DNA from: a bacterium
Lineage (GTDB): Bacteria > Bacteroidota > Ignavibacteria > UBA10030
Assembly: GCA_043803945.1 (NCBI GenBank)
Contig: JAZDJN010000063.1
Span: 1-19,783 of the forward strand
Reading direction: 5' to 3'
DNA: 19,783 bases
The translations under genes were made by a program, and so were the position numbers. Position 1 is the stretch's first letter; every line of letters begins with the position of its first letter. A model generated the notes under the pieces. It was not told where the DNA came from and did no database searches. It worked only from the letters and a program-made list of their open reading frames with translations. Of the stretch, positions 1-17,643 are shown piece after piece.

Positions 1-2221
1 CGACATAGGAAATTAATCGCGTGTAGATGCTGTCGTTGGCTTTGGTATCGCCATGAGTACCATCATCAAACATACGGCGTGTTGTATCCTGCCAGAGCGT
101 CGGACCCCATGTGGCCCATCCGCCTGTAGCCGGACCGTTCATTGCGACACCCCATTTTTTAACGCTGTCAGCTTTCTTCACCGTCAGCGTACCTTGAATA
201 TCCTGTAAGCTGTCTCCCTTTAAAACCTGGAAAATAGCCGGGCGTGCGTCAACGGTAAACTTCACAGTTACATTACGAGCAATGGCGCGTAAGTTTCTGA
301 ATCTTGGCATCCGCCGATCATCACTGGCGCTTGTGGAAACGTCATTGATCGTCATCGTCTTTGACGTGGTTATCGCATTCCGGCGTTCGCCTAATGATAC
401 ATCCGTACCGGTAAAGTTAAAGTTATAATAAATCTCCCGCATCTCACCACTGGCCGATACTCTGTAGTACTGATAATACAATGGAGTATTGAGCTTTGTG
501 ACAATCGTATCGACAGAACGGTATGTGGTTGTAAGACCCTGCGGGTTCATTCGCTTTACACGGACTTCCATCGCACTCCCACCATAGCCGGCGCGGACTT
601 CAAGCATATCATCAAGAACGAAACCGTTCTCTGTGATCGCACGCAGCATGTTCGCATTGAATGTAACGATTACTGTGTCAGAGCCTGAGAATCCAGCGAG
701 ATACCGATTTGCCCAGAACTTCCAGTAGAGTGTTGTATCGGGCATTGTCGGCCTGAATTCAAAGATACGAGCAGGGTTGCTTCCTCCACCCGGTTCAATA
801 TCAGAACCTGTTCGTAGAATTCCATCTTCCCACGTTGCATTTGAAGTCGGATTATTCGCATCGACCTTTGCGTGAATCACGAACTTATAGTAGACAGTCC
901 CTGCCACTGAATTCTTTGGGAATTTGACAACGGTAGACCAGAATTGTGTACCATCGTACTGCTGGCTGCCGCCATTGCCATGCTGGGTTTCCTGCTTTAA
1001 AAAGATCGTCTTATCCCACGCCAACGGGGCCAGACTGCCTCGGATACCCATGATCTGTGTTCCAACATTGAAGCCTTGATTAGACTGCATGTTCACGCGA
1101 AACATGATTGCTATACTATCGTTGGCGGAAACATATGGCTTCCAATATTGATCTTGTTTTGAAGGACTACCGTTAACATATTGCAATGGTAGAGTTGTAT
1201 CCTTACTCTTTGGAACGGATGAAAATAGCAGATTCCGATTTCCAGCGGTAAGATCATTTTCCCACCCTTGATGCTCATCGTCTGCGAGAAGCGCCGACTT
1301 GTGATTTGTATAGAATTTATAATCGATTGACGTAGCTGGAGTGACGACGAATTTTGCTGTGCCTTCCCAATAATCACCGCTCACATTCGTCAATTTTACT
1401 GGACTTGTCATGCCCCAGGTAAGAGGCGATGTGCCACCGCGGACCTGAACATAAGAAATAGGTCGCATTGTGTCGGGTACTGTTGCCGTGTTAACACGAA
1501 ACTTTACGGAGACAGTCTCCGGTTGAACTGTCAGAAGAGGCTTATCGTTGAAGGTCTTCCAATACAGAGTCGTGTCATTGGCTATTGTAAATTTTCTATT
1601 ATCAACACTTTCCCAAATCGGACCGGAACCGTAGACAAACTTATATTCCTGAACGGTTCCTTTCGAAGCATTCGGGAAGGAAAATTTGCCGGAATAAAAC
1701 TTCGTTACTCCTTCTCTCGCGAAGACCCAGGTCTTTCCCCAATCGAGAGGAGATGCACCTCTGATACCGACCGCATCGGATGCAGGATTAAACGATGCAT
1801 CGCTGCCCATGTTCACACGAAACCAAACATCGACAGAATCAGTAGATGTTGTAAATGGAACTGTGTACCCATTGTTGTAGTACGCGATGGGGAGAACCGT
1901 ATCTTTGGTGACCGTAAGCTTCTTATTGTCGCCACCTTCCCAGTCGCCAATAAAGAATTTATATTCCAAACTGGTGTTCGCAAGGAACGCAATGGTTTTT
2001 GTCCAATAGTCACCGCTTTGATTCGTCATTCCAACGCTTTTATCATCCCAGGTCAACGGGGTGGTATTTCCGCGTATTTGAACGACTGAGTTTGATCGCA
2101 GTGTATCCTTCACAGTTGATGTGTTCAACCGGATGGTTACATTATATGTTGTCTGGGCTGTTGCCACCCAACTAAGCAACAATACACCAAGGACAAGCAC
2201 AACAAGTGGTCTCATCTTCAT
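1..2221 (-). CDS. Secreted multi-domain carbohydrate-binding protein with tandem CBM20-like (starch-binding) modules; 3' end lies beyond the left window edge (>=740 aa)
   Basis: Not in the ORF track (no stop in window). Manual translation from ATG 2221 (AAGGAG RBS upstream): MKMRPLVVLVLGVLLLSWVATA|QTTYNVTIRLN..., a Sec signal peptide. Repeated modules carry 'IRG..PL.W', 'GDYW', 'EYKF...WE...NR/NK' (CBM20-like) and 'DTTLYW'. The window end reads RMFDDGTHGDTKANDSIYT, a Ca-binding/choice-of-anchor-X-like motif. Confidence 0.85.
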   Translation of the reverse strand, partial: MKMRPLVVLVLGVLLLSWVATAQTTYNVTIRLNTSTVKDTLRSNSVVQIRGNTTPLTWDDKSVGMTNQSGDYWTKTIAFLANTSLEYKFFIGDWEGGDNKKLTVTKDTVLPIAYYNNGYTVPFTTSTDSVDVWFRVNMGSDASFNPASDAVGIRGASPLDWGKTWVFAREGVTKFYSGKFSFPNASKGTVQEYKFVYGSGPIWESVDNRKFTIANDTTLYWKTFNDKPLLTVQPETVSVKFRVNTATVPDTMRPISYVQVRGGTSPLTWGMTSPVKLTNVSGDYWEGTAKFVVTPATSIDYKFYTNHKSALLADDEHQGWENDLTAGNRNLLFSSVPKSKDTTLPLQYVNGSPSKQDQYWKPYVSANDSIAIMFRVNMQSNQGFNVGTQIMGIRGSLAPLAWDKTIFLKQETQHGNGGSQQYDGTQFWSTVVKFPKNSVAGTVYYKFVIHAKVDANNPTSNATWEDGILRTGSDIEPGGGSNPARIFEFRPTMPDTTLYWKFWANRYLAGFSGSDTVIVTFNANMLRAITENGFVLDDMLEVRAGYGGSAMEVRVKRMNPQGLTTTYRSVDTIVTKLNTPLYYQYYRVSASGEMREIYYNFNFTGTDVSLGERRNAITTSKTMTINDVSTSASDDRRMPRFRNLRAIARNVTVKFTVDARPAIFQVLKGDSLQDIQGTLTVKKADSVKKWGVAMNGPATGGWATWGPTLWQDTTRRMFDDGTHGDTKANDSIYTRLISYV

Positions 2222-2396
2222 AAGGTTACCACTCCTTCTTTAATGATTGAATAGTGTGTGAATTAATGTCAATATCCAAATCCTTCCAAAACGTCCGCCG
2301 TATGAGTTCTTTAAACTACTGGCCTCCTTTCTCTGAGGTTCACATGAATAATCTCGTTATGGTATTACCAACTGCCATGCTCTTGTATTAGATTGA

Positions 2397-3431
2397 CTAT
2401 AATCCAATTGAAACACTTATTGTATTCAAATCTCCGAATCTGCCGAACTGTTGATTTGCATAATTCAATTCGAAGGCAGCAAATCCATCAAGTTCGTAAC
2501 GTGCGCCGATACCAAATGTTAATCCTTCCTCAGAATCTTGTTGAAGAAGCGATTTGTATCCTGCACGTAAAAAGACTGTTTTGAAAAGAGAGACTTCTCC
2601 TCCGAGGTTGAGTGTCAGGACGTTATCGTTTGGACGAATCGCATCGGCGGCAATGGTTACGGCATATTCTGGTGTATTGAGAAGATCGAGCCCCAACCCG
2701 ACGCGGAAGAAAATTGGAATGGGCCATGAATCGACCTTTAATTTCCCGACAAGAGTCTTATTTGAGCCGGGATTTGAGGGATCGATATCAATCTTCGTAT
2801 TCAGATCGCGGCCATCGAGCGACAGATCACCTCCGAAATTCGAAATCGACATCCCTAATCGCATGTCGTGAAAACCGGTAACGAACAATAATCCGGCGTC
2901 AAAGGCGATCGTACTCGCTGATTCATTCCAAACCTGTTGAGAGATATATTTTACCGATCCTCCGATCGAAAACCGATCCGTCAAACTTCGCGCATAAGAA
3001 ATCGCTATGGAAAGATCCTGCGCCGACCAATATTGTCCTGTGCCATTGGGATACAATTCTGTGGTAACTTCCTCATCACCATAATCGAGTTGTGTGATAC
3101 TGACAGCTATTGCGTTGGCACCGTCAAAGTTCACCATCCCTCCTATCCAGCGCAGCCGGGAATCGACGAGCCAGTTGGTATTGGAAAACATCGCCTCTGT
3201 CTTTTTTGCCTGCACAAATGCTCCAGGATTGAAGTACACACAAGAAATATCGTTCATCGACGATACTGATGCCCCTCCCATGGCAAGTGCACGGCCGCCG
3301 ATGGGGATTCCAAGAAATTGGGCTGAGGTCGTTGCAATTTTTGCTTGTCCAAAAACAACTTGAATCCCCAGTAAGAGAACAAGCAGGATCTTCAAAGTGT
3401 TTCCAGGTATACCATTCATCTTTTTCGTCAT
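2397..3431 (-). CDS. PorV/PorQ-family (UPF0164, FadL-like) outer-membrane beta-barrel protein
   Basis: 344 aa with signal peptide (VFG|QA). N-terminal 'AQFLGIPIGGRALAMGGA...YFNPG' motif typical of PorV/FadL-like barrels. Alternating amphipathic strands and a hydrophobic C-terminus (ISVSIGL). Confidence 0.85.
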   Translation of the reverse strand: MTKKMNGIPGNTLKILLVLLLGIQVVFGQAKIATTSAQFLGIPIGGRALAMGGASVSSMNDISCVYFNPGAFVQAKKTEAMFSNTNWLVDSRLRWIGGMVNFDGANAIAVSITQLDYGDEEVTTELYPNGTGQYWSAQDLSIAISYARSLTDRFSIGGSVKYISQQVWNESASTIAFDAGLLFVTGFHDMRLGMSISNFGGDLSLDGRDLNTKIDIDPSNPGSNKTLVGKLKVDSWPIPIFFRVGLGLDLLNTPEYAVTIAADAIRPNDNVLTLNLGGEVSLFKTVFLRAGYKSLLQQDSEEGLTFGIGARYELDGFAAFELNYANQQFGRFGDLNTISVSIGL

Positions 3432-3442
3432 ACGATCACCGC

Positions 3443-6400
3443 TTACTTTATGATTGCAAACTTGCCTGTTTTGGCACCGACTGTGGATTCGACAACATAG
3501 AAATAGACACCGAAGGCGATATCGAGGTTTTCCTTCGTCTTCAGGTTCCAGGTGACTGTGCCATCCTCCATTGTTCCACTATGCTGAAGCGTAATGACAT
3601 GCTCGCCGCGGGAAGTAAAGATTTGAATGGAAGCTCCCGCTGGCAGATGAACAAAATCGATACGCCGCTTTCGGCCTAATGTGACGCCCGGATCCAAAGG
3701 TGGTTCGAGCGTTGAAGCCGAGACATACGGATTAGGTACGACCCGAATCTTGGAAAGCTGCGCCCGCGCTTGATCAGCCGCAACGGTCGGCACGGTGGTG
3801 GTAAACTCAAACACGTCACCTTGCCGGAATGGCTTTGTCGTTCGTATCTGTAGTTTATCACCGGCACCGAGGGCATAAATCGTATCGATGGGGTCTGACA
3901 TTTTCGCCAGGAAGAGGAGACGCCAGGTATAATTCAACTGCCCCCGGGGATTTTTTGACATAATAATAATTTGATCGACCGGTGAGAGTTTTCCGTTGAA
4001 GTCTGAATCGACAAAAATAAATTTTGTGTAAACACTGTCTGTAAGATCATAGATCCTGAAATTCACCGGGATCTGGTCGGGGAACAGGTCCGGATCGCCG
4101 TAGGAGGTATCGACAATGGAATTTGCAAATTGAATTTCGTAATCACTTGGTTTAGCATAGCCGACATATTTTTTGCCGAACAACTCAACATTCAGCGTAA
4201 TAAAATTGTAGACATAGGCATTATTCCCTATCCAGCGCGATTGCCCTTCATCTTTGCGAACTTGCCAGTCATTATTTAGGACAAGTTCCACACCATCAAA
4301 GATATCCGCATCCTTTGTTTCACCGACGAAGGGGGAACCTTTGATGAATGGGCTGCGATACACCGGATAGTATTGATACTTGATTGTATATTTCTCAGCA
4401 GGAAGGCTTCCTGCAGTTTTCCCCCTGATTTCACCGCGTGCGGAATTGAGAGTGTACCTTGTTGACGCCACAGATGTACCTCTTGAATCGAAAATGCTAA
4501 CAGTACCCGGGATCAAATTCTGTTTATTCAAACGGATAACAGTGGTATCGAGTGAGATAAATTCCTCAGATATCTGTGAGAGATCTTTCACTGTATAGAA
4601 TGAGGTAAGTCTCTCCCACTCCGTTGAATCAGCAAGATCCGTTTTAAAATTCATATTGTTGTCGACTGTGTCGACTTGAGTATCGAGAAACTCCACTTGA
4701 TACTTGTGACCCGTTACCTGAGTTTCATCTAAAACGTGATAGTACGCTTTGCCGGTTCCATACTTAATGGGTCTCGTTAATTCAACTCCGTCTTTTGGCG
4801 GTACATAGCCAGCAACCTTTCCATTTGGTGTGACAATAGCCACGTTTGAACCTTTATCGACAACACCCGTTGGAGAAATAGCGACATAAATATTATTCTC
4901 AGAGGGCATAATTTCTGAGAACTGATCACCGCGGTCATATGCCACGACGGCGTAATAATACTTTCTGCCGTTCTGTACATCATTATCGACAAAGCTGTGT
5001 TGAATGCCAGTATCATCACCCAGGTAATACGCAAATCCGGATACATCATTATAGAGTTCGCCAGTGGTTGGGAAGTACCCTTTTACACCATTCTTCACAT
5101 CAAATTGCTTTAAAGGACGGTATCCTTGTGCTGAGCCTGAGCCATCGGTGATTGTAAAGATGTCTTTAAATGTCGGATCCGTCGATTTATAAATCTTGTA
5201 TCCCTCAAAATCCTTAATATTGAGAACGGGGTCAACGGACTCTTCAGCTTTCCGATCCCAATACAGGGTGACCACCCCATCGCCTGGTACTGCAGTGAGT
5301 GTTGGTATATCAGGCGGCTGCGGAAACTGGTAATTCGCATCATAGATCTTTTGAACAGTCTTCTTGTTCTTCAGCAGATCGTTGATATCGTCATCGATGC
5401 TGCCGCCTTTTCCTCCACCATACACCAGGGCAAGAGAAAATCGTTCTGTGGTTTTTGCCCTGAGCGGGAAGAAACCGGAACCATAGATGAAGTCGCCATC
5501 TCTTCCGCCCGTGGGTCGATTATTATCAATATTACTGGGAACGTCGAAGAAACCAGGTGCAAGATAACGCCACATTGCTTCATCATCGCCCATTACAAAG
5601 TTATTGGCAGGTGTGAAATAATAGAAACTGGTTAGGCCAATCTGATCCGATTCCCGGACATCCGTTTTATCGATGTGTGGTTCACCCGGCAATCCGCTAT
5701 CCGTACCATTGGCATTGTATCCGGAGGTTGGGAAACCATCACCCTCACCATAATCACCGGTTCCTTTGACACCATCGCGCCCCACATCATCATGAAGGAG
5801 ATTCCAGTCTCCATTATTATCGATCAGATCGTTGCGCCGTTCATCGATCATACTTCGCGGGTCTTTTCCGATATTCGTAAAGTAATTGATATAGCGAACA
5901 GGACGAAGGATATCGAACGGTTTACTGCCATTGGAGAGGATTTTAACCTGACGATAATGCAGGTAGTAACTCTCATCAATTAACCCATCATAGTCATTAT
6001 CTATTCCATCGTAAGAATTTGGATTCACCACAACAACACCGCGGTCAGAATAGAGATTACCTTCGGCAACCTTTGTCTTTCCGGGTTTGATCCACTGTGT
6101 GAGACCACGAGTGGTAATTCTGACAGAGTCGACAGCCGGCACGCGATATAACACCCTGCTGAAGTCATCATTGATGAGGACTATTTGAGAATTCGGCCGA
6201 ATTAATGTTGAGTCAAAATCAGACTCAGCGAACTTTGGTGCTCCGAGTCCAATTAAGGATGAGTCGGCATCGCCATCATTGTCGATACCATCGTAAGGAT
6301 TTCCAGGGCTCTCCAGAAAGGCATAGCCCACCATACCGATTGGTCCAACCCAGAGAGGATTGTTCGTCGATCGGCCCCAATCGCCGGTATAGGTGATATT

Positions 6401-7237
6401 GGTCGCAACATCGAAGAATGACCAGTCGTCGTCATACTCCTGATAATTTTCTGTCGAGGTGACACCGATGTAGGTTCCAACGAGCATTCCGAAGACAGTA
6501 CGATTGTAATCCGTTGTACTGGTGTTTGTAATTTCATAGAGCCAGAAAATGTTATCCTTCGCGAGGAACTGTGCCCATTGAAGGGCTCTTACTCTCATCT
6601 CTAATCCTAATCCATTGCGCGACGGCTTGAGCGAATCGGATTTGAAAGAAACACCAAAGATATTATTCGTGGCAAGGCTAAATCGTTCGTCGTTCTGGTC
6701 GTCCATCACATAATACGTTTCGAGGTCGGCATTGATCCGTTTGCCAAAATATCCGTTCCATGAACGCGGCCAGCCCGGGTCGTTGCCATCGTTCATTTTA
6801 TCAGGCCAGGTTGGAGGCCATGAGTTTTTATCGTTACTCATGGCAACCTTCTCAATATTGGCGTTAAAATATCCTGAGACAGGTTCGAACGTCCAGGGTT
6901 TTCCTGTGAGAGGATCTTCGTCACGCCGTGTCGTAGGCCGGGCGACGGGGCTTGTTACGACGGAGTGGAACAACTTTCCTTCCGAAATGACTTCCGCTCC
7001 GACCAGCGGGCTCACATCACCGAGGTACCCGTTGTTGTTATCCTTCCAGGCACCGCGATATCCTTGTTCAGCGGGTTGGCCAATGACTCCCCAGTTTCCA
7101 AACACGGTTCGTACCTGATTGCCATTCATAACCGCACTGCGCCGAAATTCCCGGCCGCTTGATTGCTGGGCAATAGCTGCCTCGGATGAGCCTAGAGCTA
7201 TCAGAATCCAAAGTGCGATAAACGATTTCTGTTTCAT
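3443..7237 (-). CDS. Large secreted/surface protein with Dx[DN]xDG Ca-binding motifs, an Fn3-like domain and a T9SS-CTD-like C-terminal domain; function unknown
   Basis: 1264 aa with SPI-type signal (AIA|QQ) and no lipobox Cys. Motifs DGIDNDGDAD and DGIDNDYDGLIDE. Fn3-like segment 'PTLTAVPGDGVVTLYWD...FEGYKIYKS...YYYAVVAYD'. C-terminal 'IRVVPNPY...IQIFTSRGEHV...WNLKT...GVYFYVV...GKFAIIK'. Starts 2 nt after the receptor stop, with GGAG inside the receptor's last codons. Confidence 0.85.
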   Translation of the reverse strand: MKQKSFIALWILIALGSSEAAIAQQSSGREFRRSAVMNGNQVRTVFGNWGVIGQPAEQGYRGAWKDNNNGYLGDVSPLVGAEVISEGKLFHSVVTSPVARPTTRRDEDPLTGKPWTFEPVSGYFNANIEKVAMSNDKNSWPPTWPDKMNDGNDPGWPRSWNGYFGKRINADLETYYVMDDQNDERFSLATNNIFGVSFKSDSLKPSRNGLGLEMRVRALQWAQFLAKDNIFWLYEITNTSTTDYNRTVFGMLVGTYIGVTSTENYQEYDDDWSFFDVATNITYTGDWGRSTNNPLWVGPIGMVGYAFLESPGNPYDGIDNDGDADSSLIGLGAPKFAESDFDSTLIRPNSQIVLINDDFSRVLYRVPAVDSVRITTRGLTQWIKPGKTKVAEGNLYSDRGVVVVNPNSYDGIDNDYDGLIDESYYLHYRQVKILSNGSKPFDILRPVRYINYFTNIGKDPRSMIDERRNDLIDNNGDWNLLHDDVGRDGVKGTGDYGEGDGFPTSGYNANGTDSGLPGEPHIDKTDVRESDQIGLTSFYYFTPANNFVMGDDEAMWRYLAPGFFDVPSNIDNNRPTGGRDGDFIYGSGFFPLRAKTTERFSLALVYGGGKGGSIDDDINDLLKNKKTVQKIYDANYQFPQPPDIPTLTAVPGDGVVTLYWDRKAEESVDPVLNIKDFEGYKIYKSTDPTFKDIFTITDGSGSAQGYRPLKQFDVKNGVKGYFPTTGELYNDVSGFAYYLGDDTGIQHSFVDNDVQNGRKYYYAVVAYDRGDQFSEIMPSENNIYVAISPTGVVDKGSNVAIVTPNGKVAGYVPPKDGVELTRPIKYGTGKAYYHVLDETQVTGHKYQVEFLDTQVDTVDNNMNFKTDLADSTEWERLTSFYTVKDLSQISEEFISLDTTVIRLNKQNLIPGTVSIFDSRGTSVASTRYTLNSARGEIRGKTAGSLPAEKYTIKYQYYPVYRSPFIKGSPFVGETKDADIFDGVELVLNNDWQVRKDEGQSRWIGNNAYVYNFITLNVELFGKKYVGYAKPSDYEIQFANSIVDTSYGDPDLFPDQIPVNFRIYDLTDSVYTKFIFVDSDFNGKLSPVDQIIIMSKNPRGQLNYTWRLLFLAKMSDPIDTIYALGAGDKLQIRTTKPFRQGDVFEFTTTVPTVAADQARAQLSKIRVVPNPYVSASTLEPPLDPGVTLGRKRRIDFVHLPAGASIQIFTSRGEHVITLQHSGTMEDGTVTWNLKTKENLDIAFGVYFYVVESTVGAKTGKFAIIK

Positions 7238-7239
7238 GC

Positions 7240-10062
7240 TTAGAACTCCAAATTCATTCCTAGTTCAACCCGCCGTGGTTCTGAATAAAATGTGGGGATC
7301 CTGAACCATTCAGTGAGTGTGTTGATATATTCCTTTGGATTAGTCAGCCGTGCACGCGACTCATCAGAGGTGAATCCTGCACGCCCTGTATCATCAAATA
7401 CTCCGTATTCATTTCGAATATCAAAGAGATTATTAATTCTTGTGAAGAAGACCATCTTCATCGATGCGAGCTGCACTTCGTAATAGCCGCGCAAGTCGAC
7501 ATTGAAAAATGATTGTTTGAGTTGGCTGTTCGTGAGGATGGTGGAAATATCCGTAGAGCTTCGCGGGGTGTACGGAGTGCCGGAACCATAGGAGGCAATC
7601 ATGTTCAAACCCCAACTGGCTGTACTATAGGAAAGGACAACATTCAATGTATGCCGTTGATCCCAGCCAAGCGGCAGAAGCTGAACTTCGGGTAATGCTC
7701 CGCTCGTGAGCGCATTGCGGGATTCCTGCGGGTCCGAAGCGCTGCCCCGTGCAACCTGATAGGTATAATCCACAGTGCTGTTGAAACCGTTGGAGAAACG
7801 TTTCTCCAGTGTCAGGACAATTCCCTTGACGAATCCAAAGTCTGCATTCGTGTACCTGCTGTATTTCGACGCCCCGCCAAAAATGATGATTTCATCCCCG
7901 CGGGTACTTGTAAGATTTCTGATGTCTCTCAGATATGTTGTCACATCGACAGAGATATCATCGGTAAGCTGCTGCTGCACGCCCAATTCACCGCTGATGG
8001 TTTGCTCAGGCTGCAAATCGGCATTTCCGATGATTCCCTGGTTGCCAGTTCCAAGACCGATCTTGAATCGGGGATTCTCATAGAGCCGCTCAAAGCGAGG
8101 TATCTGGAAAAAATGTCCATAGGAAAAATGGACGATCCCCCGATCCGTAATTGGAAAAGAGACGCCGAGCCTTGGACTTACTGCAGATTTTGGCGAGGCA
8201 GACTTGAACCAGTAAGACTCACGTTCGGCAAGAGTCACCTCAGTTTCACCCGGATCCTGATTTCCGTTTCTATTCTGGTCATGGAATCGGTTCTGCGGCT
8301 TGATCGGGTTGTAAATACTCGGGTCGCTTGGATCACTCAGAATCTGTCCATCGGGTTGGAAGTAATCGTAGCGCACCCCGATATTCACAATAATATTTTT
8401 GAATTCCATTTTATCCTGGATGTACGCGGAGAACTCCCTCGGTTTCCTCTTGTAATAGTCGTGCGAGTTCGATGAAATATCGAGTATGCGCGTTCTGATA
8501 TAGGGATCTCCAGTCGCAACGTTCAGATCTGTCTGCGACTGAATCGGTTGAAGCTGGATATTCTCATATTCCATCATGTGAGTTCTGAACTCTATGCCAG
8601 CCTTGAGAAGGTTCATTCCATCGATCTGGCTTGTTACATCTGCCTTGATCAAAGCCGTTTGCGTTGACCGATGAAATTTTGATAAATCCGTTCCACCGGT
8701 CAGGAAGCTGTACGAATCATTCGAAATGAAGAGCAAGGGATGGACATAGCGCGGCCCGTTTGGATTGACAACCTCATATTGCCCCATAAATTGTCCGGTT
8801 GGAGAAATTGAATCGGCATACTGCAGATCGTACAGGTAGTACTTGAAATCTTTGAGGAAATAGGAACCGCCAATTGTATAGAAGGTGCTTGGAGTTACGG
8901 AGTGGGAAAATTGGAATATTACCGTGTGACTCTGGTTGTAATTGTTACCCATTCCTTCAGGATTGTAGAAGTACGATCTATTAAAAGGCTTCGCTTTGGT
9001 ATAATCAAAGATGTAGTTTGCCGAGAGTTTCATGAGGGAGGCGATCCGCCATGTCAGTTTTCCCTGAGCATAGTACCGTTCACTCCAGTTCATTGGTACC
9101 GTAGAACTATCGCCCTTTCCCGATTGATCCCGGAAGAGATGGAACACACCAAGGCTGTCTGTATAGGAAATATTGGAAGGATTAAACCGATTGAAGGCTT
9201 TTAGATACCCGTTAAAATAGATGTAGCGTGCATTGGCAAAAAAGGTGAGGTCATCTCCAAAGATCGGCCCGCTGAGGTTCGCCTCAATATTTCGAATGTT
9301 GGTGGGATTAAATTGATTTCCTGGAAAGAGCTCTTTATTAAACGAAAGGTAATCTCCACCATAAATTCCTACTCCACCTGTATATTTAATCCCTCCCTCT
9401 TTCGTTGCAATGTTTACAATACCCGACATCGCCTGGCCGTATTCTGCATTGAACGCTCCAGACACAAGCTGTAATTCTTGTATCAAACTTTTATTGATTT
9501 CAACAACCTGGGTGCCGTTGAATGCATCCGTGACCGGAACCCCATCAATCCAGTAAGCAACTTCTCCGCTGCGGCCTCCGCGCAAGCTTCCGGCAACGAA
9601 TCCAGCCTGGAGTGTGAGTACAGAGCTTACTTCAGAGACCGGCATCGCTGAAATGTCCTTACCACTGACAATCGCTGTTTTCGCAGTGAGATCCTTTTGA
9701 ACCAGCGGACGTTCTGCAATGACCACCACTTCGCTTGTCTCGATGGCCTCCTCTGACATTTCGATGTCGATCGTTGTCGTCAAATCGATATTCACACGTA
9801 CACCAGTCGTACGATACTGGCGATACCCAACCATCGACGCGATGATTGTGTAATCGGATGCTGGGACATTCAGGATGACATACCGACCGTCGAGATCCGT
9901 CACTGCACCCAGACGGGTATTCTCCAGCCGCACATTTGCTCCGATGAGTGCTTCACCGGTTTTCTTGTCTTTGATCACCCCCGTGATTTTTCCTGATGCG
10001 CCTCTTACGGTAAGAGTTCCACAGAGTACTGAGATGGCCAGTAGAGCTACAATCGGCTTCAA
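7240..10062 (-). CDS. TonB-dependent receptor with N-terminal carboxypeptidase-regulatory-like domain
   Basis: 'GKITGVIKDKKTGEALIGANV...TDLDGRY' N-domain, plug 'LRGGRSGEVAYWIDGVPV...GAFNAEYGQAMSGIVNIATKEG', and C-terminal Phe (PRRVELGMNLEF). Start moved from the track's 10107 to TTG at 10062, which has GAGGAG 7 nt upstream and directly precedes the hydrophobic signal. Confidence 0.92.
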   Translation of the reverse strand: MKPIVALLAISVLCGTLTVRGASGKITGVIKDKKTGEALIGANVRLENTRLGAVTDLDGRYVILNVPASDYTIIASMVGYRQYRTTGVRVNIDLTTTIDIEMSEEAIETSEVVVIAERPLVQKDLTAKTAIVSGKDISAMPVSEVSSVLTLQAGFVAGSLRGGRSGEVAYWIDGVPVTDAFNGTQVVEINKSLIQELQLVSGAFNAEYGQAMSGIVNIATKEGGIKYTGGVGIYGGDYLSFNKELFPGNQFNPTNIRNIEANLSGPIFGDDLTFFANARYIYFNGYLKAFNRFNPSNISYTDSLGVFHLFRDQSGKGDSSTVPMNWSERYYAQGKLTWRIASLMKLSANYIFDYTKAKPFNRSYFYNPEGMGNNYNQSHTVIFQFSHSVTPSTFYTIGGSYFLKDFKYYLYDLQYADSISPTGQFMGQYEVVNPNGPRYVHPLLFISNDSYSFLTGGTDLSKFHRSTQTALIKADVTSQIDGMNLLKAGIEFRTHMMEYENIQLQPIQSQTDLNVATGDPYIRTRILDISSNSHDYYKRKPREFSAYIQDKMEFKNIIVNIGVRYDYFQPDGQILSDPSDPSIYNPIKPQNRFHDQNRNGNQDPGETEVTLAERESYWFKSASPKSAVSPRLGVSFPITDRGIVHFSYGHFFQIPRFERLYENPRFKIGLGTGNQGIIGNADLQPEQTISGELGVQQQLTDDISVDVTTYLRDIRNLTSTRGDEIIIFGGASKYSRYTNADFGFVKGIVLTLEKRFSNGFNSTVDYTYQVARGSASDPQESRNALTSGALPEVQLLPLGWDQRHTLNVVLSYSTASWGLNMIASYGSGTPYTPRSSTDISTILTNSQLKQSFFNVDLRGYYEVQLASMKMVFFTRINNLFDIRNEYGVFDDTGRAGFTSDESRARLTNPKEYINTLTEWFRIPTFYSEPRRVELGMNLEF

Positions 10063-10109
10063 GGTAATTCTCCTCTCTATGAGAAAACAGTTCTTCAAAA
10101 CAGTCAATG

Positions 10110-11141
10110 TTACAGATGGACAACGGTATGCTCTTGCAAGCGCGTTGTTGTTCGTATCACCAGTTCTGGCTCGAACGTTTCATGAATAATCGGGAGAGAT
10201 GGATTACTCATTCTTTCTAATAATCTTTTTGCCGCCATCATGCCAATTTCCGACATCGGCTGGTGCATTGTCGTTAGCTGTACATACTCCGCCAGATCAA
10301 TATCATCGAACCCGATGATTGCGACATCCTCGGGGCAGTGGATTCCCTTTTCGCGCAACGCATTCAAGGCACCGATGGCCTGGATATCACTCGCAATAAA
10401 AAATGCTTCGGGCATCTCCTTCTCCATACTGATAAACTCCTGCATCAACCTGAACCCGCTTTCCCTGGTAAATCCATCAAGAATTGTTGAGGTATCATGT
10501 TTATGATACTGAGAGCGAAGAGGAATCCCTCTTTCCGTCAGGGCCTGTGTATAACCATGAAAGCGTTCCTTGGCCGGCCGGCTGTTCAGATTTGCGTTGA
10601 GCATTCCAATTTTTCTAAAGCCCAGATCGAGCAAATACGTGGTTGCTTTGAAGGCGCCCGACTGGTTTCGCACCGAGTATGAATCGAAATCTTTATGCTG
10701 TGCATCGACAAGAATGATCGGAGAGCGCGATGTGGAATGATCGATTTGAAATTCATTTGGCACATTCATTGAAAAGAACAGCACTCCATCGACAGCTTTC
10801 TGAATGCTATGATGCCTCCAGGCAATTTCCACCTGATCCGGATGGTTCACTCCTTGAAGGATCAAGGTGCAATCCTGCTCACTTAATACTGATTGGACTG
10901 CCTGCAAGATTTCTATGAAAAAGAATGTTGTGAAATACGGAATGATCGCAAGCACTGCACCTGTTTTCCTTCTTGCAAGTCCTCGTGCATAGGGATGCGG
11001 ATTATAGTTGAGTCGCTCAGAAATTTTTAGAACTCGTTTACGGGTCTTCGCTGAGACACTAGGATGGTTGTTTAGAACCCGGGAAACCGTGCCGATCCCA
11101 ACCTTTGCTTTCTTGGCTATGTCATAGATTGTTGGCGACAC
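10110..11141 (-). CDS. LacI-family transcriptional regulator
   Basis: N-terminal HTH 'TIYDIAKKAKVGIGTVSRVLN', hinge 'YNPHPYARGL', sugar-binding domain 'PEDVAIIGFDD...LTTMHQP...LVIRTT'. GTG start. Confidence 0.96.
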   Translation of the reverse strand: MSPTIYDIAKKAKVGIGTVSRVLNNHPSVSAKTRKRVLKISERLNYNPHPYARGLARRKTGAVLAIIPYFTTFFFIEILQAVQSVLSEQDCTLILQGVNHPDQVEIAWRHHSIQKAVDGVLFFSMNVPNEFQIDHSTSRSPIILVDAQHKDFDSYSVRNQSGAFKATTYLLDLGFRKIGMLNANLNSRPAKERFHGYTQALTERGIPLRSQYHKHDTSTILDGFTRESGFRLMQEFISMEKEMPEAFFIASDIQAIGALNALREKGIHCPEDVAIIGFDDIDLAEYVQLTTMHQPMSEIGMMAAKRLLERMSNPSLPIIHETFEPELVIRTTTRLQEHTVVHL

Positions 11142-11154
11142 TCTACTGTTCTCT

Positions 11155-11184
11155 TATTTTTATGGAAGGGCTTCCATAAAAATA
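11155..11184. promoter_or_regulatory. LacI-type operator (perfect 14-bp inverted repeat with 2-nt centre)
   Basis: TATTTTTATGGAAG-GG-CTTCCATAAAAATA. The core TGGAAG(G)GCTTCCA is one base from a CG-centred LacI palindrome. It lies 13 nt upstream of the LacI start and overlaps the -10 element. Confidence 0.85.
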
Positions 11185-11206: not shown

Positions 11207-11430
11207 GTTAAAAATCACTCTTAGTTCAATTTTTTTTGTTTCAGGTCAAATTCAGCCTATAGACTGAGGCCGTTCAAAGCATCAATTTAAAAGACTTTGT
11301 CCCTTCAGTTTAATACTCATGAATCGAGATTACAATGAAACCTTCTTAATGTAAGAACGTTTATTCGATAAGCCTAATGAGCCATTTCCAATACACTATC
11401 CTATCAACACACATCGAAGGAACAACTATT

Positions 11431-13122
11431 ATGCACAGGATCTATATCGTCTTGTTGCTTTGTGCAATGATTGCGACTTGCTTGTTTTCACAAGCTGACC
11501 CGGTTAAAAAAGGGCTTGAGTCAATAACAATTGACGCAGTAAAGGGCCAACTGGAATTCCTTGCCTCCGACTGGACAATGGGCCGAGAAACAGGAGAAAA
11601 AGGCTTATATATTGCTGCAGACTATATTGCCAGTATGTTTAAGGTGTATGGTGTCAAACCAGCTGGCGATAGAGAAGGCGGACGAGGCGGAAGATCAATG
11701 TTCATGTCCAGCCGTAATGTACGGATGCCCGAGCCTGTTACTACGTATTTCCAGAATTATCCCTTGGTTTCTACCGAGTCTGTGAGTGATCCCGAATTCG
11801 TGCTTATTGATCGAAGCGTTGCTGGTGAGAAAAGTTTATCCTTTCCATATCGTTCAGATTTTCAATTCCCTGTTACTTCCTATGGTATCAATTTCACTGC
11901 TCCCATAGTATTCATTGGGTATGGGTTAACTGATGAGAAGAATGGTTACGACGATCTTAAAGGAATCGATCTCAAAGGGAAGTTCGTGATACGTATTTCA
12001 GGATTCCCCGGTTCTAAGGACACCACATCACCGGCGTATAAGAAGTTCAGACCGGCGGAGCAACCCGCGCAGATGCAGTTTCCACGACAACAGGGACGAG
12101 GCGGTGGAAGGAATCAGCGTCTTGAGCAGTTGGGAGTTCTTGGAGTGCTCGATGTTAACGTTGCACCGGATATGCTCCTTCGCAATGCTACAAATTACCC
12201 CTTCCGATTTAATACGGCATTTTATGAAGGTGACGAACCGCTTTCTTCTTCCGGTAGGAGTATGAGGCTTGTTGAAGATAGTCTTTCAGGAGGAGTAGTC
12301 TCAATTACAATTTCTCAGAGAATTTTCAACGAGATTTTCGAAGGATCCGGAATTTCTCTTGAAGAGTTCGAAAAACAAGTCGCAAAGACGATGAAACCTG
12401 CGTCAAAAGTTATTCCTAATAAATTCATCTCTTTGAAATCGAGTGTCAAATCCAAAATCATTCATGGCCGAAATGTTATCGGAGTCATTGAGGGAGAATC
12501 GAAAGAAGAGATTATCGTCGTCGGAGGCCATTATGATCACATGGGAATGAGAAAAGGATACATCTATAATGGCGCTGATGACAATGCATCTGGAACAGTC
12601 GGTGTTATGACTATCGCCAAAGCATTCGCCGCTACGGGAGTGAAGCCGAAGAAAACTGTCGTTTTTGCCGCCTGGTCTGGTGAAGAGGAAGGGTTGCTTG
12701 GTTCTGCGTATTTTGTTAGCCGGCCATCCTTTGGAAAATTCCAGAATATCATTCTTAATCTTAACTACGATATGATTTCCAGAGATGCTGATAATGATAC
12801 CTTGAAGAATAATTGCGGCTATACATATACAGAGGCATTTCCTATGCTGAAGGAAATTGTCGAAAAAGCGAACAAGGATTATAATGTTTCCTTGAATTTG
12901 AATATCCGATCAGCACCTCGTCCAGGTGGAGGCAGCGATCATGCTTCGTTTTCTGCAAAAGACATCCCTGTGATGTCATTTATGGCTGCGATGCATCCAG
13001 ACTATCACCAGCCGATGGACCACGTCGACAAAGTGAACTTTGAAAAGATGACAAAAATCATCAAGATTGGATTCCTCAGTATTTGGGATCTGGCAAATTC
13101 AGATGCAAAATTGAAAAAATAA
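11431..13122 (+). CDS. Secreted M28-family metallopeptidase with PA-like insert
   Basis: Zn-ligand motifs GGHYDH, NGADDNASG, WSGEEEGLLGS, NYDMI, SDHASF and DYHQPMD. PA-like 'APIVFIGYG...DDLKGIDLKGKFV'. Start preferred at ATG 11431 (GAAGGA RBS, then signal peptide LFS|QA) over the track's 11377. Confidence 0.92.
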   Translation: MHRIYIVLLLCAMIATCLFSQADPVKKGLESITIDAVKGQLEFLASDWTMGRETGEKGLYIAADYIASMFKVYGVKPAGDREGGRGGRSMFMSSRNVRMPEPVTTYFQNYPLVSTESVSDPEFVLIDRSVAGEKSLSFPYRSDFQFPVTSYGINFTAPIVFIGYGLTDEKNGYDDLKGIDLKGKFVIRISGFPGSKDTTSPAYKKFRPAEQPAQMQFPRQQGRGGGRNQRLEQLGVLGVLDVNVAPDMLLRNATNYPFRFNTAFYEGDEPLSSSGRSMRLVEDSLSGGVVSITISQRIFNEIFEGSGISLEEFEKQVAKTMKPASKVIPNKFISLKSSVKSKIIHGRNVIGVIEGESKEEIIVVGGHYDHMGMRKGYIYNGADDNASGTVGVMTIAKAFAATGVKPKKTVVFAAWSGEEEGLLGSAYFVSRPSFGKFQNIILNLNYDMISRDADNDTLKNNCGYTYTEAFPMLKEIVEKANKDYNVSLNLNIRSAPRPGGGSDHASFSAKDIPVMSFMAAMHPDYHQPMDHVDKVNFEKMTKIIKIGFLSIWDLANSDAKLKK

Positions 13123-14210: not shown

Positions 14211-14424
14211 AACCGTCTTCGTAGTCTGGAAGAATCGGTGGGCCCTGGGTACTCTATTGCGTCGAGAACAATATCTATCTTGAATACAACCTGTATGTAC
14301 ATTTCATACCGTGATTCATCAAGGTTTGCGAAAATCAAATGTACTACGGTTTACTCTCTCACGATTCTTTTCTTTATTAATTTCACATTCCTACAACTCA
14401 AACTTTTTTCATAAGGAGCGCTTT

Positions 14425-17400
14425 ATGAAACAAACCATTACGAGGTGGTTTGCCGTCTTGGGATGCTTTATGATTTTTACTTCTGCTATTTTTGCTCAGG
14501 GTGCTACCAATGCAGCAATTAATGGTACCATTAAAAGCACGAGTGGAGAGGTTCTTCCCGGGGCAACCATCATGGCAGTCCATAATCCCAGCGGCACAAC
14601 CTATGGGACAAGTTCTCGCGTTGATGGCCGATACAACATCCCTAACCTTCGCGTTGGCGGCCCATACACCATTACGGTTTCTTACATTGGATATGCACAA
14701 CAGAAGCGTGAAGATGTCAATTTACAACTGAGTCAGGATCAGACTCTAAATTTCGTTATGTCTGAAACCGCGGTTCAACTTGGTGAAGTGCAGATTGTTG
14801 GAGAACGCGGTTCAATAATGAGCGCAGCCCGTACCGGTGCAGCGACAAACGTCACACGCGCACAGATGGATCGTTTGCCAACCATTTCGAGAAGCTTCCA
14901 GGATTATTACAAGGTTTCTCCTTATTTCACCGGTGTGGGAAGCAATGCCGTTGGACGCAATAACCGCTACAATAATATCCAGATTGACGGAGCGAATTTT
15001 AATGACCTCTTCGGTCTCGGCGCAACAGGAACCCCAGGCGGTCAAGGCGGAACCACACCAATCAGCCTTGAAGCGATTGAAGAGTTTCAAATCGTCGTCT
15101 CTCCTTTTGATGTTCGAAACTCGAACTTCACCGGAGCAGGCATTAACGCGATCACACGCAGTGGAACCAACACCCTCAAGGGATCTGCGTTCTATATGAC
15201 GCGTAACCAGTCGCTCGCCGGCGTCAGCCCGGATGCGTTAAAAGCCAAATTGCCCGACTTCACAACAAAATCGTATGGTGTGCGGCTCGGCGGACCGATC
15301 ATCGAGAATAAGTTGTTCTTCTTTGGAGCTGCAGAGTTGGCACGTTCAGGAGCTCCATTTACCCGGACATTCAATCAAAAAGCATTTGGAACAAACTCCT
15401 ATACCGCGAATTCAGACTCTCTCCGTATTCTTTCGGATTTCCTGAAATCGAAATATGGCTATGAGACTGGTTCGTGGTCGACAATTCCACGTGATGATAA
15501 CAGCGATAAGTTTTTCTTGCGCTTTGATTATAATCTTAGCGAGAGCCATAAGTTAACAGCGCGCTGGAATTATCTCACTGCTTCCACTCATAATTCACCG
15601 TCACGTTTCCGTGGAACGTTTGATGTCTATTCAGAAAATGCTGCCTATCAGTTGGACAACACGACGAACTCATTCGCTCTTCAGCTAACAAGCCTTTTCG
15701 GAAACACTGTTTCGAACGAATTAATCATCGGTTATAATAACCAGCTTGATAAACCAGTCTATAAAGGACAACCCTTCCCAACCGTCGAGATCCGAACAGT
15801 CGGATCCACTCCTGGTACCGTAACAACTGAAAACCGCCTTGCTGTTGGCGCCGAAGAGTTCCGGCATTACAATGAATTGGAACAGGATGTCATAGAAATC
15901 ACCGATAACTTATCGCTCTATTTGAAGGACCACACCATTACCGTTGGAGCCAAAGTTGACCTCCTGCAATTCCGTAACCTCTTTATTTCAGACGGTTTTG
16001 GCTGGTATCAATATAATTCACTCGCAGCCTTTATGGCCGGTGGAAAAGCAGCATCATATTTATTCAAATATTCTGCTACTTCGAATCCCCAGCAAGAAGC
16101 AAATTGGGGATACCGGCAGCTTGGTTTCTATGTTCAGGATGAATGGACCGTCAGCCCGAGACTTAAAATTGTCGGCGGTGTTCGCTTTGATATCCCCACT
16201 TACCCTGATAAGCCCAATAACAATCCAACGTTTGAAACAGCTTTCAGTTCAATGGGCTTGAAGACGAGTGAGCCACCAAAGACAGCGATTGCTATTTCAC
16301 CGCGTATCGGCTTCAACTGGGCTGTTGATGAGGAACGGAATACACAACTTCGCGGCGGTGTCGGTATCTTCTATGGCCGCTATCCTGCAGTATGGGTTTC
16401 TAACCAGTATAGTAACACAGGCGTAGATTTCTACTCAACCACAGTTGCGCCCAACACGTTCATAGCTGATCCTTATAACCAACCAAAGATAGCGACAGGT
16501 TTGCCAACTGCAGAAGTCAATATGACTGATCCAAACTTCAAGGCTCCATCTGTGATGCGATTCAGTATCGGCCTCGATCAGAAACTGCCGTTTGATATCG
16601 TTGCCTCGGTCGAAGGGATCTATTCAAAGAACATGAACGAAGTCTACTATCAAAACATCCTGATGGCAGGGCTTCAGAGCAATAATGGCCTGACTCCCGG
16701 TGGAAGACTTGTTGGCGAGGGTCGTGAAGTGTGGAGCCTTATTAACGCCACAACCGGTGCGTATACAGGAACACGACCACTCCCACTGAGCACTGCATTT
16801 ACGGGCGTGTACTATGTGACGAACACCGATCAGGGTTCAATGAGCAATATCGTTGTCCAGTTACAGCGCCAGAACAACACCGATGGTATCTATGCCAATA
16901 TCGGTTACAATTACGGTATATCGAAAGATATCGGTGGAACAAACAGTACAACCGCAAGTTCTGGATGGAGATATAATCCTACAAAGGGTAATCCAAATCA
17001 ACCGGTGCTCTCATACTCAGACGCTGACCGAACCCATCGGATCTTTGGAACAGTTTCCTATCGCTATGACTGGAATATGTTCGGTCTGGCAACAACCGTT
17101 GGCGTCTTCTACAACGGTCTCTCCGGTAGTCCATTCTCCTATATCGTCAATGGTGATGTGAATGGCGATGGCCGCTCGGATAACGACCTGATGTTTATCC
17201 CGAAGAGTGCCAGCGATATCATCTTACTTACTTCATCCGGTGCCGCTGCTCCGCAAGCCGATTATGATGCATTAATGGCTTACATCGACAGCGATGCATA
17301 TCTGAAAGAACACAAAGGTGAATTTGCCGAACGAAACGCTGCTCGATCACCCTGGTCACATCGTATTGACTTCCGCGTCACACAAGAAGTTGGTACCATC

Positions 17401-17643
17401 ATGGGCCACAAGCTTGAATTCGTTTTCGATGTTGAAAACGCAATGAACATGATTGATGACGAATCAGGTTGGGTGAAGGTTGCAGCTCAACAGGTTCCGT
17501 TGGTAACATTCCATAGCGTTACACCAACCGGAGCGAATGCTGGCAAAGCACGCTATCGCTGGACCGGAATGTCTGATCCAAGCGTTGCGAGCAACACCGC
17601 ATCACGCTGGTCAGGTAACTTCGGAATTCGCTATACATTCTAA
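14425..17643 (+). CDS. Oar-like TonB-dependent receptor with N-terminal carboxypeptidase-regulatory-like domain
   Basis: 'GRYNIPNLRVGGPYTITVSYIG', 'NNIQIDGANFNDLFGL...PISLEAIEEFQIVVSPFDVR...GAGINAITRSGTN', 'ISPRIGFNW', C-terminal GIRYTF. Start preferred at ATG 14425 (AAGGAG RBS, signal IFA|QG) over the track's 14311. Confidence 0.92.
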   Translation: MKQTITRWFAVLGCFMIFTSAIFAQGATNAAINGTIKSTSGEVLPGATIMAVHNPSGTTYGTSSRVDGRYNIPNLRVGGPYTITVSYIGYAQQKREDVNLQLSQDQTLNFVMSETAVQLGEVQIVGERGSIMSAARTGAATNVTRAQMDRLPTISRSFQDYYKVSPYFTGVGSNAVGRNNRYNNIQIDGANFNDLFGLGATGTPGGQGGTTPISLEAIEEFQIVVSPFDVRNSNFTGAGINAITRSGTNTLKGSAFYMTRNQSLAGVSPDALKAKLPDFTTKSYGVRLGGPIIENKLFFFGAAELARSGAPFTRTFNQKAFGTNSYTANSDSLRILSDFLKSKYGYETGSWSTIPRDDNSDKFFLRFDYNLSESHKLTARWNYLTASTHNSPSRFRGTFDVYSENAAYQLDNTTNSFALQLTSLFGNTVSNELIIGYNNQLDKPVYKGQPFPTVEIRTVGSTPGTVTTENRLAVGAEEFRHYNELEQDVIEITDNLSLYLKDHTITVGAKVDLLQFRNLFISDGFGWYQYNSLAAFMAGGKAASYLFKYSATSNPQQEANWGYRQLGFYVQDEWTVSPRLKIVGGVRFDIPTYPDKPNNNPTFETAFSSMGLKTSEPPKTAIAISPRIGFNWAVDEERNTQLRGGVGIFYGRYPAVWVSNQYSNTGVDFYSTTVAPNTFIADPYNQPKIATGLPTAEVNMTDPNFKAPSVMRFSIGLDQKLPFDIVASVEGIYSKNMNEVYYQNILMAGLQSNNGLTPGGRLVGEGREVWSLINATTGAYTGTRPLPLSTAFTGVYYVTNTDQGSMSNIVVQLQRQNNTDGIYANIGYNYGISKDIGGTNSTTASSGWRYNPTKGNPNQPVLSYSDADRTHRIFGTVSYRYDWNMFGLATTVGVFYNGLSGSPFSYIVNGDVNGDGRSDNDLMFIPKSASDIILLTSSGAAAPQADYDALMAYIDSDAYLKEHKGEFAERNAARSPWSHRIDFRVTQEVGTIMGHKLEFVFDVENAMNMIDDESGWVKVAAQQVPLVTFHSVTPTGANAGKARYRWTGMSDPSVASNTASRWSGNFGIRYTF

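Follow-up and report, generated by a model that had tools for sequence, protein, structure and literature searches.

How might a member of the Bacteroidota take up starch through a TonB-dependent receptor when the gene that follows the receptor encodes no SusD? The question is raised by an ignavibacterial contig (GenBank assembly GCA_043803945.1, JAZDJN010000063.1), which is analysed here in its whole length of 19,783 nucleotides (the window); it is contig C63 of an assembly of 5.54 Mb in 118 contigs that is rated 100% complete. The minus strand of the window has five co-directional open reading frames (ORFs) of 343, 955, 1264, 344 and 740 amino acids (aa). Three of them are the subject of this study: a TonB-dependent receptor (7240..10062), a large protein of 1264 aa (3443..7237), here called the partner, and an outer-membrane barrel of the PorV/PorQ family, 344 aa long (2397..3431). 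The gap between receptor and partner is 2 nucleotides (nt; 7238-7239) and that between partner and barrel is 11 nt (3432-3442), and the ORF coordinates confirm the tight packing given in a preliminary description of the window.

The SusC/SusD pair is the textbook model of Bacteroidota glycan import, and the tools that find polysaccharide utilisation loci (PULs) seek that pair. We suggest that receptor, partner and barrel are probably the conserved core of a starch-utilisation locus and do the job of the SusC/SusD pair of Bacteroides. The genome has fourteen modules of this kind, and the association of the three genes, which recurs in several lineages, is more than a chance neighbourhood.

Receptor, partner and barrel

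The ORF of the receptor is open to position 10107, where its first TTG lies (955 aa). A start at the TTG of 10062 is more plausible, because an AGGAG-type ribosome site lies 6 nt upstream of it. In Pfam the N-terminus matches CarbopepD_reg_2 (73.5 bits) and Plug (26.0 bits, cut-off 23.9), i.e. a CarboxypepD_reg domain with a plug behind it, and residues 643-908 give C-terminal matches to barrels of the FepA/CirA type. This is the general layout of a TonB-dependent receptor, Plug and then a large beta-barrel, and the receptors of the paralogous modules match PF00593. The SusC/RagA model TIGR04056 reaches only 75.6 bits against a cut-off of 368.25 and covers residues 40-173 only; the SusC signature TIGR04057 has no listing at E ≤ 0.01. 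The positive control, a receptor on contig C9 of the same genome, gives 496.7 bits with TIGR04056 over its full length. With a hidden Markov model (HMM) of the receptor subfamily the 14 module receptors score 858-1120 bits, which is so by construction. Next comes a receptor beside the C61 module (498 bits); the genome's remaining 24 receptor-like ORFs of at least 500 aa stay at or below 201 bits, a gap that is not by construction. Judged by these profiles, the module receptors are a subfamily distinct from SusC/RagA.

The partner has a signal peptide and no cysteine among its first 70 residues; hence there is no lipobox and the protein is not a lipoprotein. SusD_RagB and SusD-like families (PF07980) do not match it at E ≤ 0.01, and Pfam as a whole gives no family except CHU_C below threshold (19.9 bits, cut-off 27, residues 1201-1252). 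No relative was found in the Protein Data Bank (PDB) by sequence, either with the single sequence or with a profile (profile E 0.4, chance level), and no named cluster in the ESM Atlas. Of 7999 scored candidates, 3255 are relatives of the partner at E ≤ 0.001. The top 120 of these are full-length proteins of 1245-1317 aa with 58-66% identity, and all named ones are called hypothetical protein.

The partner was folded with AlphaFold2 as two halves (residues 23-650 and 640-1264), each with a shallow alignment of 25 rows. Signal peptide and N-terminal half (residues 1-650) are encoded by 5288..7237. The model of the N-terminal half (residues 23-650, m4a67ae904f0b) has a mean predicted local distance difference test score (pLDDT) of 52, with core strands at 70-89. 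In a full-PDB search with VIA-align its top matches are the N-terminal beta-supersandwich domains of glycoside hydrolase (GH) enzymes of families GH94, GH116, GH149, GH161, GH15 and GH65 (Z from 16.1 to about 12, 215-270 residues aligned, root-mean-square deviation 3.4-4.5), and galactose-mutarotase-like proteins rank next. No catalytic domain, whether (alpha/alpha)6 or TIM-barrel, is matched in the same search. The half also has long acidic loops of the Dx[DN]xDG type. We tentatively assign to it a carbohydrate-binding-type beta-supersandwich fold.

The C-terminal half (residues 640-1264, model ma92660a59f8c) has a mean pLDDT of 78.3 and is predicted to be all-beta, with FN3/Ig-like sandwiches and a final domain of seven strands. 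Foldseek finds FN3/Ig arrays for it (S-layer protein, gp130-type receptors, pilins) and also PorZ (5m11) at probability 0.95. The middle part of the protein, at about residues 651-1149 (3791..5287), is a predicted string of FN3/Ig-like domains, and the C-terminal domain (CTD), residues 1150-1264 with the stop codon, occupies 3443..3790. Residues 584-858 are common to the paralogues on contigs C32, C59, C104 and C87. The likeness extends into parts of the N-terminal region only in the C32 and C59 paralogues; in the others it is confined to the FN3-like segment and the tail. At the level of sequence this pattern fits a common stalk and anchor with substrate-specific heads. Among the orthologues, N-terminal half and tail are the most conserved parts (mean distance 0.46 for each), versus 0.86 for the middle part.

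The tail keeps the layout of type A CTDs in type IX secretion: a predicted 7-strand sandwich, a PNP motif and a G.Y.Y...K end. The type A models PF18962 and TIGR04183 give no match at E ≤ 0.01, the type B models PF13585 and TIGR04131 give only the CHU_C score below cut-off, and in NCBIfam the PorZ C-terminus matches weakly (E 1.3e-3). The C-terminal 115 residues of the 14 partners served for a tail-class HMM, and ten of the genome's ordinary type A tails for a comparison HMM; both were run on every ORF of at least 150 aa (4562 in all), restricted to its C-terminal 130 residues. The 14 partner tails reach 101-138 bits with the class HMM, as they must by construction; with the ordinary HMM they reach at most 21 bits or give nothing, which is not by construction (121.8 vs 16.3 bits for the tail of the window). 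The about 140 ordinary tails have 67-141 bits with the ordinary HMM and at most 40 with that of the class. No special-class tail beyond the 14 was found among the 4562 ORFs. The nearest outsiders are the tail of PorU (44.8 bits special, 38.3 ordinary) and that of a 1797-aa PorU-like protein (48.9 and 31.2 bits). By these profiles the partner tail is a CTD class of its own, longer than type A. Its 14 members stand against 14 receptor-linked barrels in the genome, and neighbouring secreted enzymes carry ordinary Por_Secre_tail domains. Run against 1.84 billion cluster representatives, the tail profile has 21078 matches at E ≤ 0.001, of which 5727 pass E ≤ 1e-10 and 151 pass E ≤ 1e-30. All of the single-stretch matches listed extend to the last residue of their proteins.

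Besides PorU, whose tail is of the uncleaved type, two proteins with intermediate tails were seen in the genome. One is the 1797-aa protein (C91:110791-116184), a second PorU-like protein that matches NF033707 in two pieces (226 + 87 bits, below cut-off). The other is a 521-aa protein of the BNR/sortilin type (C34:48489-51903, L065:6490-9904; 31.6 bits special, 25.0 ordinary). Two tandem barrels of the PorV family follow the latter gene and there is no receptor, so it is a receptor-less variant of the pair.

The barrel of the window scores 185.5 bits with NF033709, the model of the PorV/PorQ family (cut-off 90), and falls below the equivalog cut-offs of PorQ (NF033711, 95.3 of 220) and PorV (NF033710, 62.7 of 250). 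The same holds for all module barrels: they score 142-213 bits with NF033709, all 14 stay below the equivalog cut-offs, and for 11 of them the PorQ model gives a higher score than that of PorV. A profile of the module barrels matches the solved PorV chain of Flavobacterium (6h3i_F) at E 2.7e-31. PorP/SprF (TIGR03519 / PF11751) does not match the barrel of the window, and some of the paralogous barrels give weak or borderline matches to PF11751. The housekeeping members of the family are encoded elsewhere in the genome: PorU at C87:354352-357660 (1001.5 bits) with PorV behind it (308.1 bits, cut-off 250), PorQ on C54 (242.6 bits, cut-off 220) and a PorV2-like gene on C95. The possibility that the barrel of the window is the sole housekeeping PorV is thus rejected. 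On C104 a single frame of 2285 aa matches SprA in three pieces (746.6, 226.5 and 42.6 bits).

Hence the protein assignments of the preliminary description, i.e. a partner that is not a lipoprotein, a CTD-like tail and a PorV-like barrel, are all borne out, with the refinement that the tail stands apart from type A.

Fourteen modules and their relatives

In the genome 18 genes pass the PorV/PorQ family cut-off, and when the partner of the window is the query, matches to its final 100 or so residues lie directly upstream of most of them. Thirteen of the 18 barrels directly follow a protein with a special tail (633-1264 aa), which itself stands directly after a receptor of the subfamily. In the 14th module (C87, about 29-39 kb) the receptor is followed by the barrel, and the tail-bearing protein lies three genes upstream. 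The partners in the 13 ordered modules are without Pfam families. Distances between the paralogous modules are correlated for all three proteins (r 0.33 for barrel and tail, p 0.007; 0.58 for barrel and receptor; 0.54 for tail and receptor, p 0.0001), which shows that duplication took place by whole modules.

At least 8 of the 14 modules adjoin recognisable genes of carbohydrate-active enzymes, carbohydrate-binding modules (CBMs) or sugar regulators. Pectin is indicated for the C56 module (GH28, GH88, UxaE, LacI), beta-glucan for the C32 module (GH94, two glycoamylase-type proteins, CBM9 proteins, LacI) and starch for that of the window (CBM20). The C70 module has GH29, GH97, a heparinase II/III-like protein and alginate lyase as neighbours, the C81 and C106 modules chondroitinase-B-like lyases, the C75 module a 3-keto-disaccharide hydrolase and a heparinase-like protein, and the C104 module NamZ and a BNR protein. 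Neighbours for alginate or other uronates among the modules include PL6-like (polysaccharide lyase), alginate lyase and heparinase II/III proteins. In three modules an extra protein of 511-522 aa comes after the PorV-like barrel (C81:12490-14025, C56:48421-49962, C75:18652-20220); those of C81 and C56 have weak FadL/Toluene_X matches and that of C75 is without a Pfam match. Another module contains two 239-aa proteins without Pfam families (C24:29578-31018).

The trio is conserved outside this genome as well. In a collection of species-representative genomes 214 stretches encode a relative of the partner, and 74 distinct loci were kept, with titles mostly of Ignavibacteriota or Bacteroidota metagenome-assembled genomes. 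In the orthologous loci the receptor is adjacent upstream in 49/49 testable cases and the barrel adjacent downstream in 60/60. The LacI gene keeps its position in most of them, and a CBM20-type gene is usually present too. One of these loci, on a complete chromosome (L069), has the order GH77, LacI, receptor, partner, barrel, a 703-aa protein, a peptidyl-prolyl isomerase-like protein and GH13, which confirms the alpha-glucan character of the locus. Its 703-aa protein, which takes the place of the CBM20 protein of the window, has only an ordinary Por_Secre_tail and FlgD_ig and no CBM_20 match.

At E ≤ 1e-15 the special tail is present in 154 of 301 genomes of the phylum, the own genome included. 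With the own genome left aside, it occurs in nearly all families of the class of the window (f1 13/14, f2 7/7, f7 16/16) as well as in numerous other ones (f28 35/49); it is absent or rare in f20 (0/63), f21 (0/22) and f16 (1/16). Fourteen loci from ten other families of the phylum all have the order receptor, tail protein, barrel.

The partner from one of these 14 loci was the query of a second scan of the collection, in which four loci too short for the tail were left uncounted. Both neighbours are present in 8/8 records titled Balneolaceae or Rhodothermales, among them the cultured Gracilimonas tropica DSM 19535 (locus L154). In records of Candidatus Neomarinimicrobiota the barrel is found in 10/10 and the receptor in 10/11, the miss being a locus with two tandem partners. 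In KSB1 records there are receptors in 3/3 and barrels in 2/3, one of them rescued on inspection. For the loci labelled Ignavibacteria the barrel is found in 27/27 and the receptor, by the distance rule, in 20/24; in the four misses the partner genes are fragmented in the assemblies and the receptor is present further upstream. The synteny of the triplet thus extends from the orthologues to other lineages. Departures from the simple order were seen as well: in L225, from the Neomarinimicrobiota, two tandem partner genes with special tails stand behind one receptor (1119-8569), and in L228 an ORF of 197 aa is inserted between partner and barrel.

The genome also has a single true SusC/RagA receptor, the positive control on C9 (C9:9391-14130, L238:392-5131). 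It is followed by a lipoprotein of 509 aa with a lipobox cysteine, whose SusD match is sub-threshold (19.2 bits, cut-off 23.1). These genes are probably a divergent SusCD pair beside the 14 triplet modules. In the class a SusD match over cut-off is found in 39 of 121 genomes. Because of this pair and these matches, the trio is to be regarded as the dominant architecture, not as the sole one. The term 'SusD-free', which had been applied to the module, fits the partner of the window, which has neither a SusD match nor a lipobox, and does not hold genome-wide.

At the head of the putative operon in the window stands a LacI-family transcriptional regulator (10110..11141, minus strand, 343 aa; Pfam LacI, Peripla_BP_1, Peripla_BP_3). 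A perfect inverted repeat of 14+14 nt (11155..11184; arms 100% complementary, 2 nt between them), 14 nt upstream of the LacI start, is a possible operator. A weaker palindrome with an AACGTT centre (11345-11372) lies ahead of a divergent gene of an M28 peptidase and may also be an operator. Downstream of the barrel the 740-aa ORF (2..2221, minus strand), truncated by the contig end, encodes a predicted starch-binding surface protein (CBM20, choice-of-anchor X) with matches to PF00686 (CBM_20, 42.4 bits) and NF041940. On the plus strand of the window there is another receptor-like outer-membrane protein (14311-17643, 1110 aa, CarboxypepD_reg + OMP_b-brl_4), without a partner or barrel gene and with only 117 bits for the module-receptor HMM. 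It is flanked by the M28 peptidase (11377-13122) and an S41/tricorn-type protease (17879-19561), and given these neighbours it may be part of a peptide-uptake set.

Proposed mechanism and its alternatives

As a conserved module the trio has good support; as a mechanism it is unproven. We lean towards the following reading: the type IX system exports the partner, whose uncleaved tail then holds it on its private barrel, much as PorZ is held on PorQ, and in this place the partner captures alpha-glucan on behalf of the receptor. The export route, the uncleaved tail, the contacts of tail with barrel and of partner with receptor, and the glycan binding are all inferred.

Step 1: The genes would be transcribed as one operon under the LacI regulator, as the gene order and the small gaps suggest. 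With its signal peptide the partner would cross the inner membrane by Sec. It would then pass the outer membrane via the type IX system by means of its C-terminal domain, although the motor genes of this system were not found.

Step 2: At the surface the tail would not be cleaved, nor the partner joined to lipopolysaccharide (LPS), as happens to ordinary type A cargo. Instead the tail would be bound to the barrel encoded 11 nt downstream, in analogy to PorZ-PorQ and PorU-PorV; the 14:14 correspondence and the correlated divergence of tail and barrel point in the same direction.

Step 3: The Ig/FN3-like stalk would present the N-terminal supersandwich domain at the surface. This domain may capture starch or maltooligosaccharides and pass them to the adjacent receptor, as is suggested by its low-confidence fold, the locus content and the strict adjacency. 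Paralogous modules whose partners have a different N-terminal domain would be devoted to other glycans.

The correlated divergence was followed in 41 complete orthologous loci. The distance correlation r(CTD, barrel) is 0.88, the highest for the tail. The partial correlation of CTD and barrel is 0.73 given the receptor and 0.81 given the N-terminal half (p = 0.0005), and r(CTD, receptor given barrel) is -0.04. This fits a tail under selection to match its barrel. The idea of a cognate barrel, put forward in the preliminary description, is thus favoured by the numbers of tails and barrels and by the correlation of their distances; the tether, the role as a lid and the binding of glycan remain on the level of proposals. 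None of the observations that would have spoken against that description was made: the triplet is conserved, no catalytic fold was found, SprA and PorU are present and there is another PorV.

In the passages of PMC10202324 considered here ordinary type A cargo is handed by PorV to PorU, which cuts the tail; the tail of PorZ is retained on PorQ and that of PorU stays uncleaved on PorV, and the authors of the review suggest that cognate PorV-like barrels shield tails against cleavage. Alternatively, the module barrel could be a cargo-specific shuttle, which collects the partner at SprA, as PorV does with ordinary cargo, and delivers it to PorU, where the tail would be cut and the partner fixed to LPS or released, with no lasting complex of barrel and partner and no physical one with the receptor. 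In favour of this, the barrels are members of the PorV/PorQ family with a profile that matches the PorV solved within the SprA complex, the genome has PorU and a housekeeping PorV, and the tail has the type A layout with its PNP motif and G.Y.Y...K end. However, a shuttle leaves unexplained why a distinct tail class matches the receptor-linked barrels 14:14 while about 140 cargoes share one PorV, why the conservation of the tail equals that of the best domain and its divergence follows the barrel, and why the pair is always beside a receptor. We regard it as unlikely.

A second alternative concerns the head of the partner. The protein might be chiefly an enzyme of a new glycan-cleaving or glycan-modifying family at the surface, comparable to SusG and not a lid, and the barrel may still be its anchor. 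Its N-terminal half resembles a fold of many glycoside hydrolases, phosphorylases, lyases and mutarotases and is the most conserved part, and there is no other endo-acting enzyme in the short window. Yet the matched domains are the non-catalytic N-terminal ones, with no (alpha/alpha)6 or TIM-barrel among the matches, and Pfam, NCBIfam and PDB give no sequence match. In addition, the orthologous loci have GH13 and GH77 genes of their own, and paralogues for unrelated glycans share stalk and tail and not the N-terminal part, as binding proteins do. An enzyme in this position seems improbable to us, about as much as the shuttle.

Several observations weigh against the tethered capture protein that we prefer. 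Because the model of the N-terminal half is poor (pLDDT 52), the supersandwich assignment and the glycan binding are tentative, and enzymes, mutarotases for example, can have supersandwich domains too. The correlation with the barrel is as strong for the middle part of the partner as for the tail (0.88), and distance correlations are prone to false positives. In the tree of the barrels 13 of 29 inner branches are open, long branches meet and the base is unresolved; for this reason we do not treat the module barrels as a single clade separate from PorV and PorQ. In the KSB1 locus L184 no barrel follows the partner and another receptor starts there instead.

The most serious of the objections is the motor. 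The porKLMN genes, named in the preliminary description as a part of the system to look for, did not appear: GldL, GldM and GldN have no match in this 100%-complete genome (TIGR03517, PF12080, PF12081, TIGR03513, TIGR03523), and for GldK (TIGR03525) there are only FGE-sulfatase-like matches of at most 80.6 bits (cut-off 350). In the phylum GldM_1st matches 36 of 151 sampled genomes, all in families without or nearly without the special tail (f16 9/9, f21 10/10, f31 4/4), and it matches none in tail-carrying families (f1 0/7, f7 0/8, f18 0/4, f19 0/5, f28 0/22), so that GldM_1st and the special tail occupy complementary sets of families in this sample. With no motor match, the dependence on type IX is based on SprA, PorU, PorV, PorQ and the tails alone. 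Given these four proteins and about 140 ordinary CTD proteins, the genome must have a functioning route for CTD export, and therefore the missing motor is more likely too divergent for the models used. The motor genes in the triplet-bearing lineages are either too divergent or missing.

Another region of the genome was considered as porKLMN and rejected. This FGE-rich region (C98:44790-63161, L236) encodes caspase-plus-FGE-sulfatase proteins with an RVT_1 reverse transcriptase, a 1051-aa WD40 protein and an HD protein, and looks like a set around a diversity-generating retroelement.

Least credible, and in our view very improbable, is a type IX-independent two-partner system, where the barrel displays or inserts its neighbour as Slam does or acts as a FadL-type side channel of the uptake complex: it would suit the missing GldL, GldM and GldN, the complementary families of GldM_1st and triplet and the further FadL/Toluene_X-like barrel in three modules, but SprA (747 + 227 bits), PorU (1001 bits), PorV, PorQ and about 140 CTD proteins imply a working CTD route, and the tail resembles type IX CTDs.

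The tethered capture protein allows a wider proposal, which we put forward as a speculation that has the odds against it. The trio may be a lipoprotein-free 'utilisome' built by the type IX system, in which the private PorQ-like barrel is a stable subunit of the transporter complex and permanently docks the partner by its uncleaved special tail. In Ignavibacteria, Balneolaceae/Rhodothermales, Neomarinimicrobiota and KSB1 it would then be the chief alternative to SusCD, with a PorL/M motor that is too divergent or replaced. If the trio is a working alternative, glycan-uptake loci have been missed in entire lineages with high abundance in soils, sediments and the ocean; in the present genome the scale is 14 modules to one SusCD-like pair. 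It would also extend the tether by a cognate PorV-like barrel, so far that of PorZ-PorQ, to a general way of building surface machines. Gracilimonas tropica DSM 19535 offers a cultured carrier for tests of the mechanism.

Comparison with known systems

No published description of the receptor-partner-barrel trio was found in the literature on PorV/PorQ-like barrels, TonB receptors, Ignavibacteria and PULs, supplements not covered. The trio fails the definitions of SusC, SusD, type A and type B CTDs, PorV proper, PorQ proper and PorP/SprF, and satisfies only those of a TonB-dependent receptor and of the PorV/PorQ family. Its relation to known systems is therefore one of partial likeness.

In Neisseria Slam barrels display TbpB-type partners of TonB-dependent receptors. 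TbpA-TbpB with Slam has thus a dedicated barrel gene alongside, as the trio has; however, its partners are lipoproteins, the barrel is of another family and there is no type IX tail. BtuB-BtuG, as far as it is treated in the part of PMC10404256 used here, also combines a TonB-dependent transporter with a surface-exposed capture protein, and differs in that the partner is a lipoprotein of another fold.

Closer in its genetic layout is the type B system. Type B CTD cargo is anchored, according to the part of PMC9143113 drawn on, by a PorP-like barrel encoded next door, without linkage to anionic lipopolysaccharide (A-LPS), and this PorP/SprF-type barrel gene lies immediately downstream of that of the cargo. 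In the window, by contrast, the barrel is of the PorV/PorQ type (NF033709) and the tail fails CHU_C, and for type B pairs no link to a receptor is described in that part of the source.

PorZ-PorQ and PorU-PorV of Porphyromonas gingivalis are the models for the tether. In both, in the descriptions available to us, a CTD protein keeps its tail and is held by a barrel of the PorV/PorQ family, which for the window is an inference. The likeness to PorZ is seen in the weak match of the tail to the PorZ C-terminus, in the match of the model to 5m11 and in the higher score of the barrel for PorQ than for PorV. Unlike these single-copy housekeeping pairs, the pair of the window is multi-copy, adjacent, joined to a receptor and placed in nutrient loci.

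The paper on Melioribacter roseus, in the part consulted (PMC3534657), labels Mros0761-0759 as 'SusC, SusD and SusE' of a starch operon, a label which may stand for a true SusCD pair or for the trio. The SusC/SusD (RagA/RagB) 'utilisomes', in the account of PMC7618045 as far as used here, resemble the trio in a transporter of about 950 aa with a carboxypeptidase-regulatory-like domain and a partner gene directly next to it, in regulated loci of carbohydrate-active enzymes and in many paralogous copies per genome. However, the partner of the window is without PF07980 and without a lipobox, the receptor fails the SusC/RagA model, and, unlike the SusC/SusD pair, the module has an obligatory third gene, that of a PorV/PorQ-type barrel.

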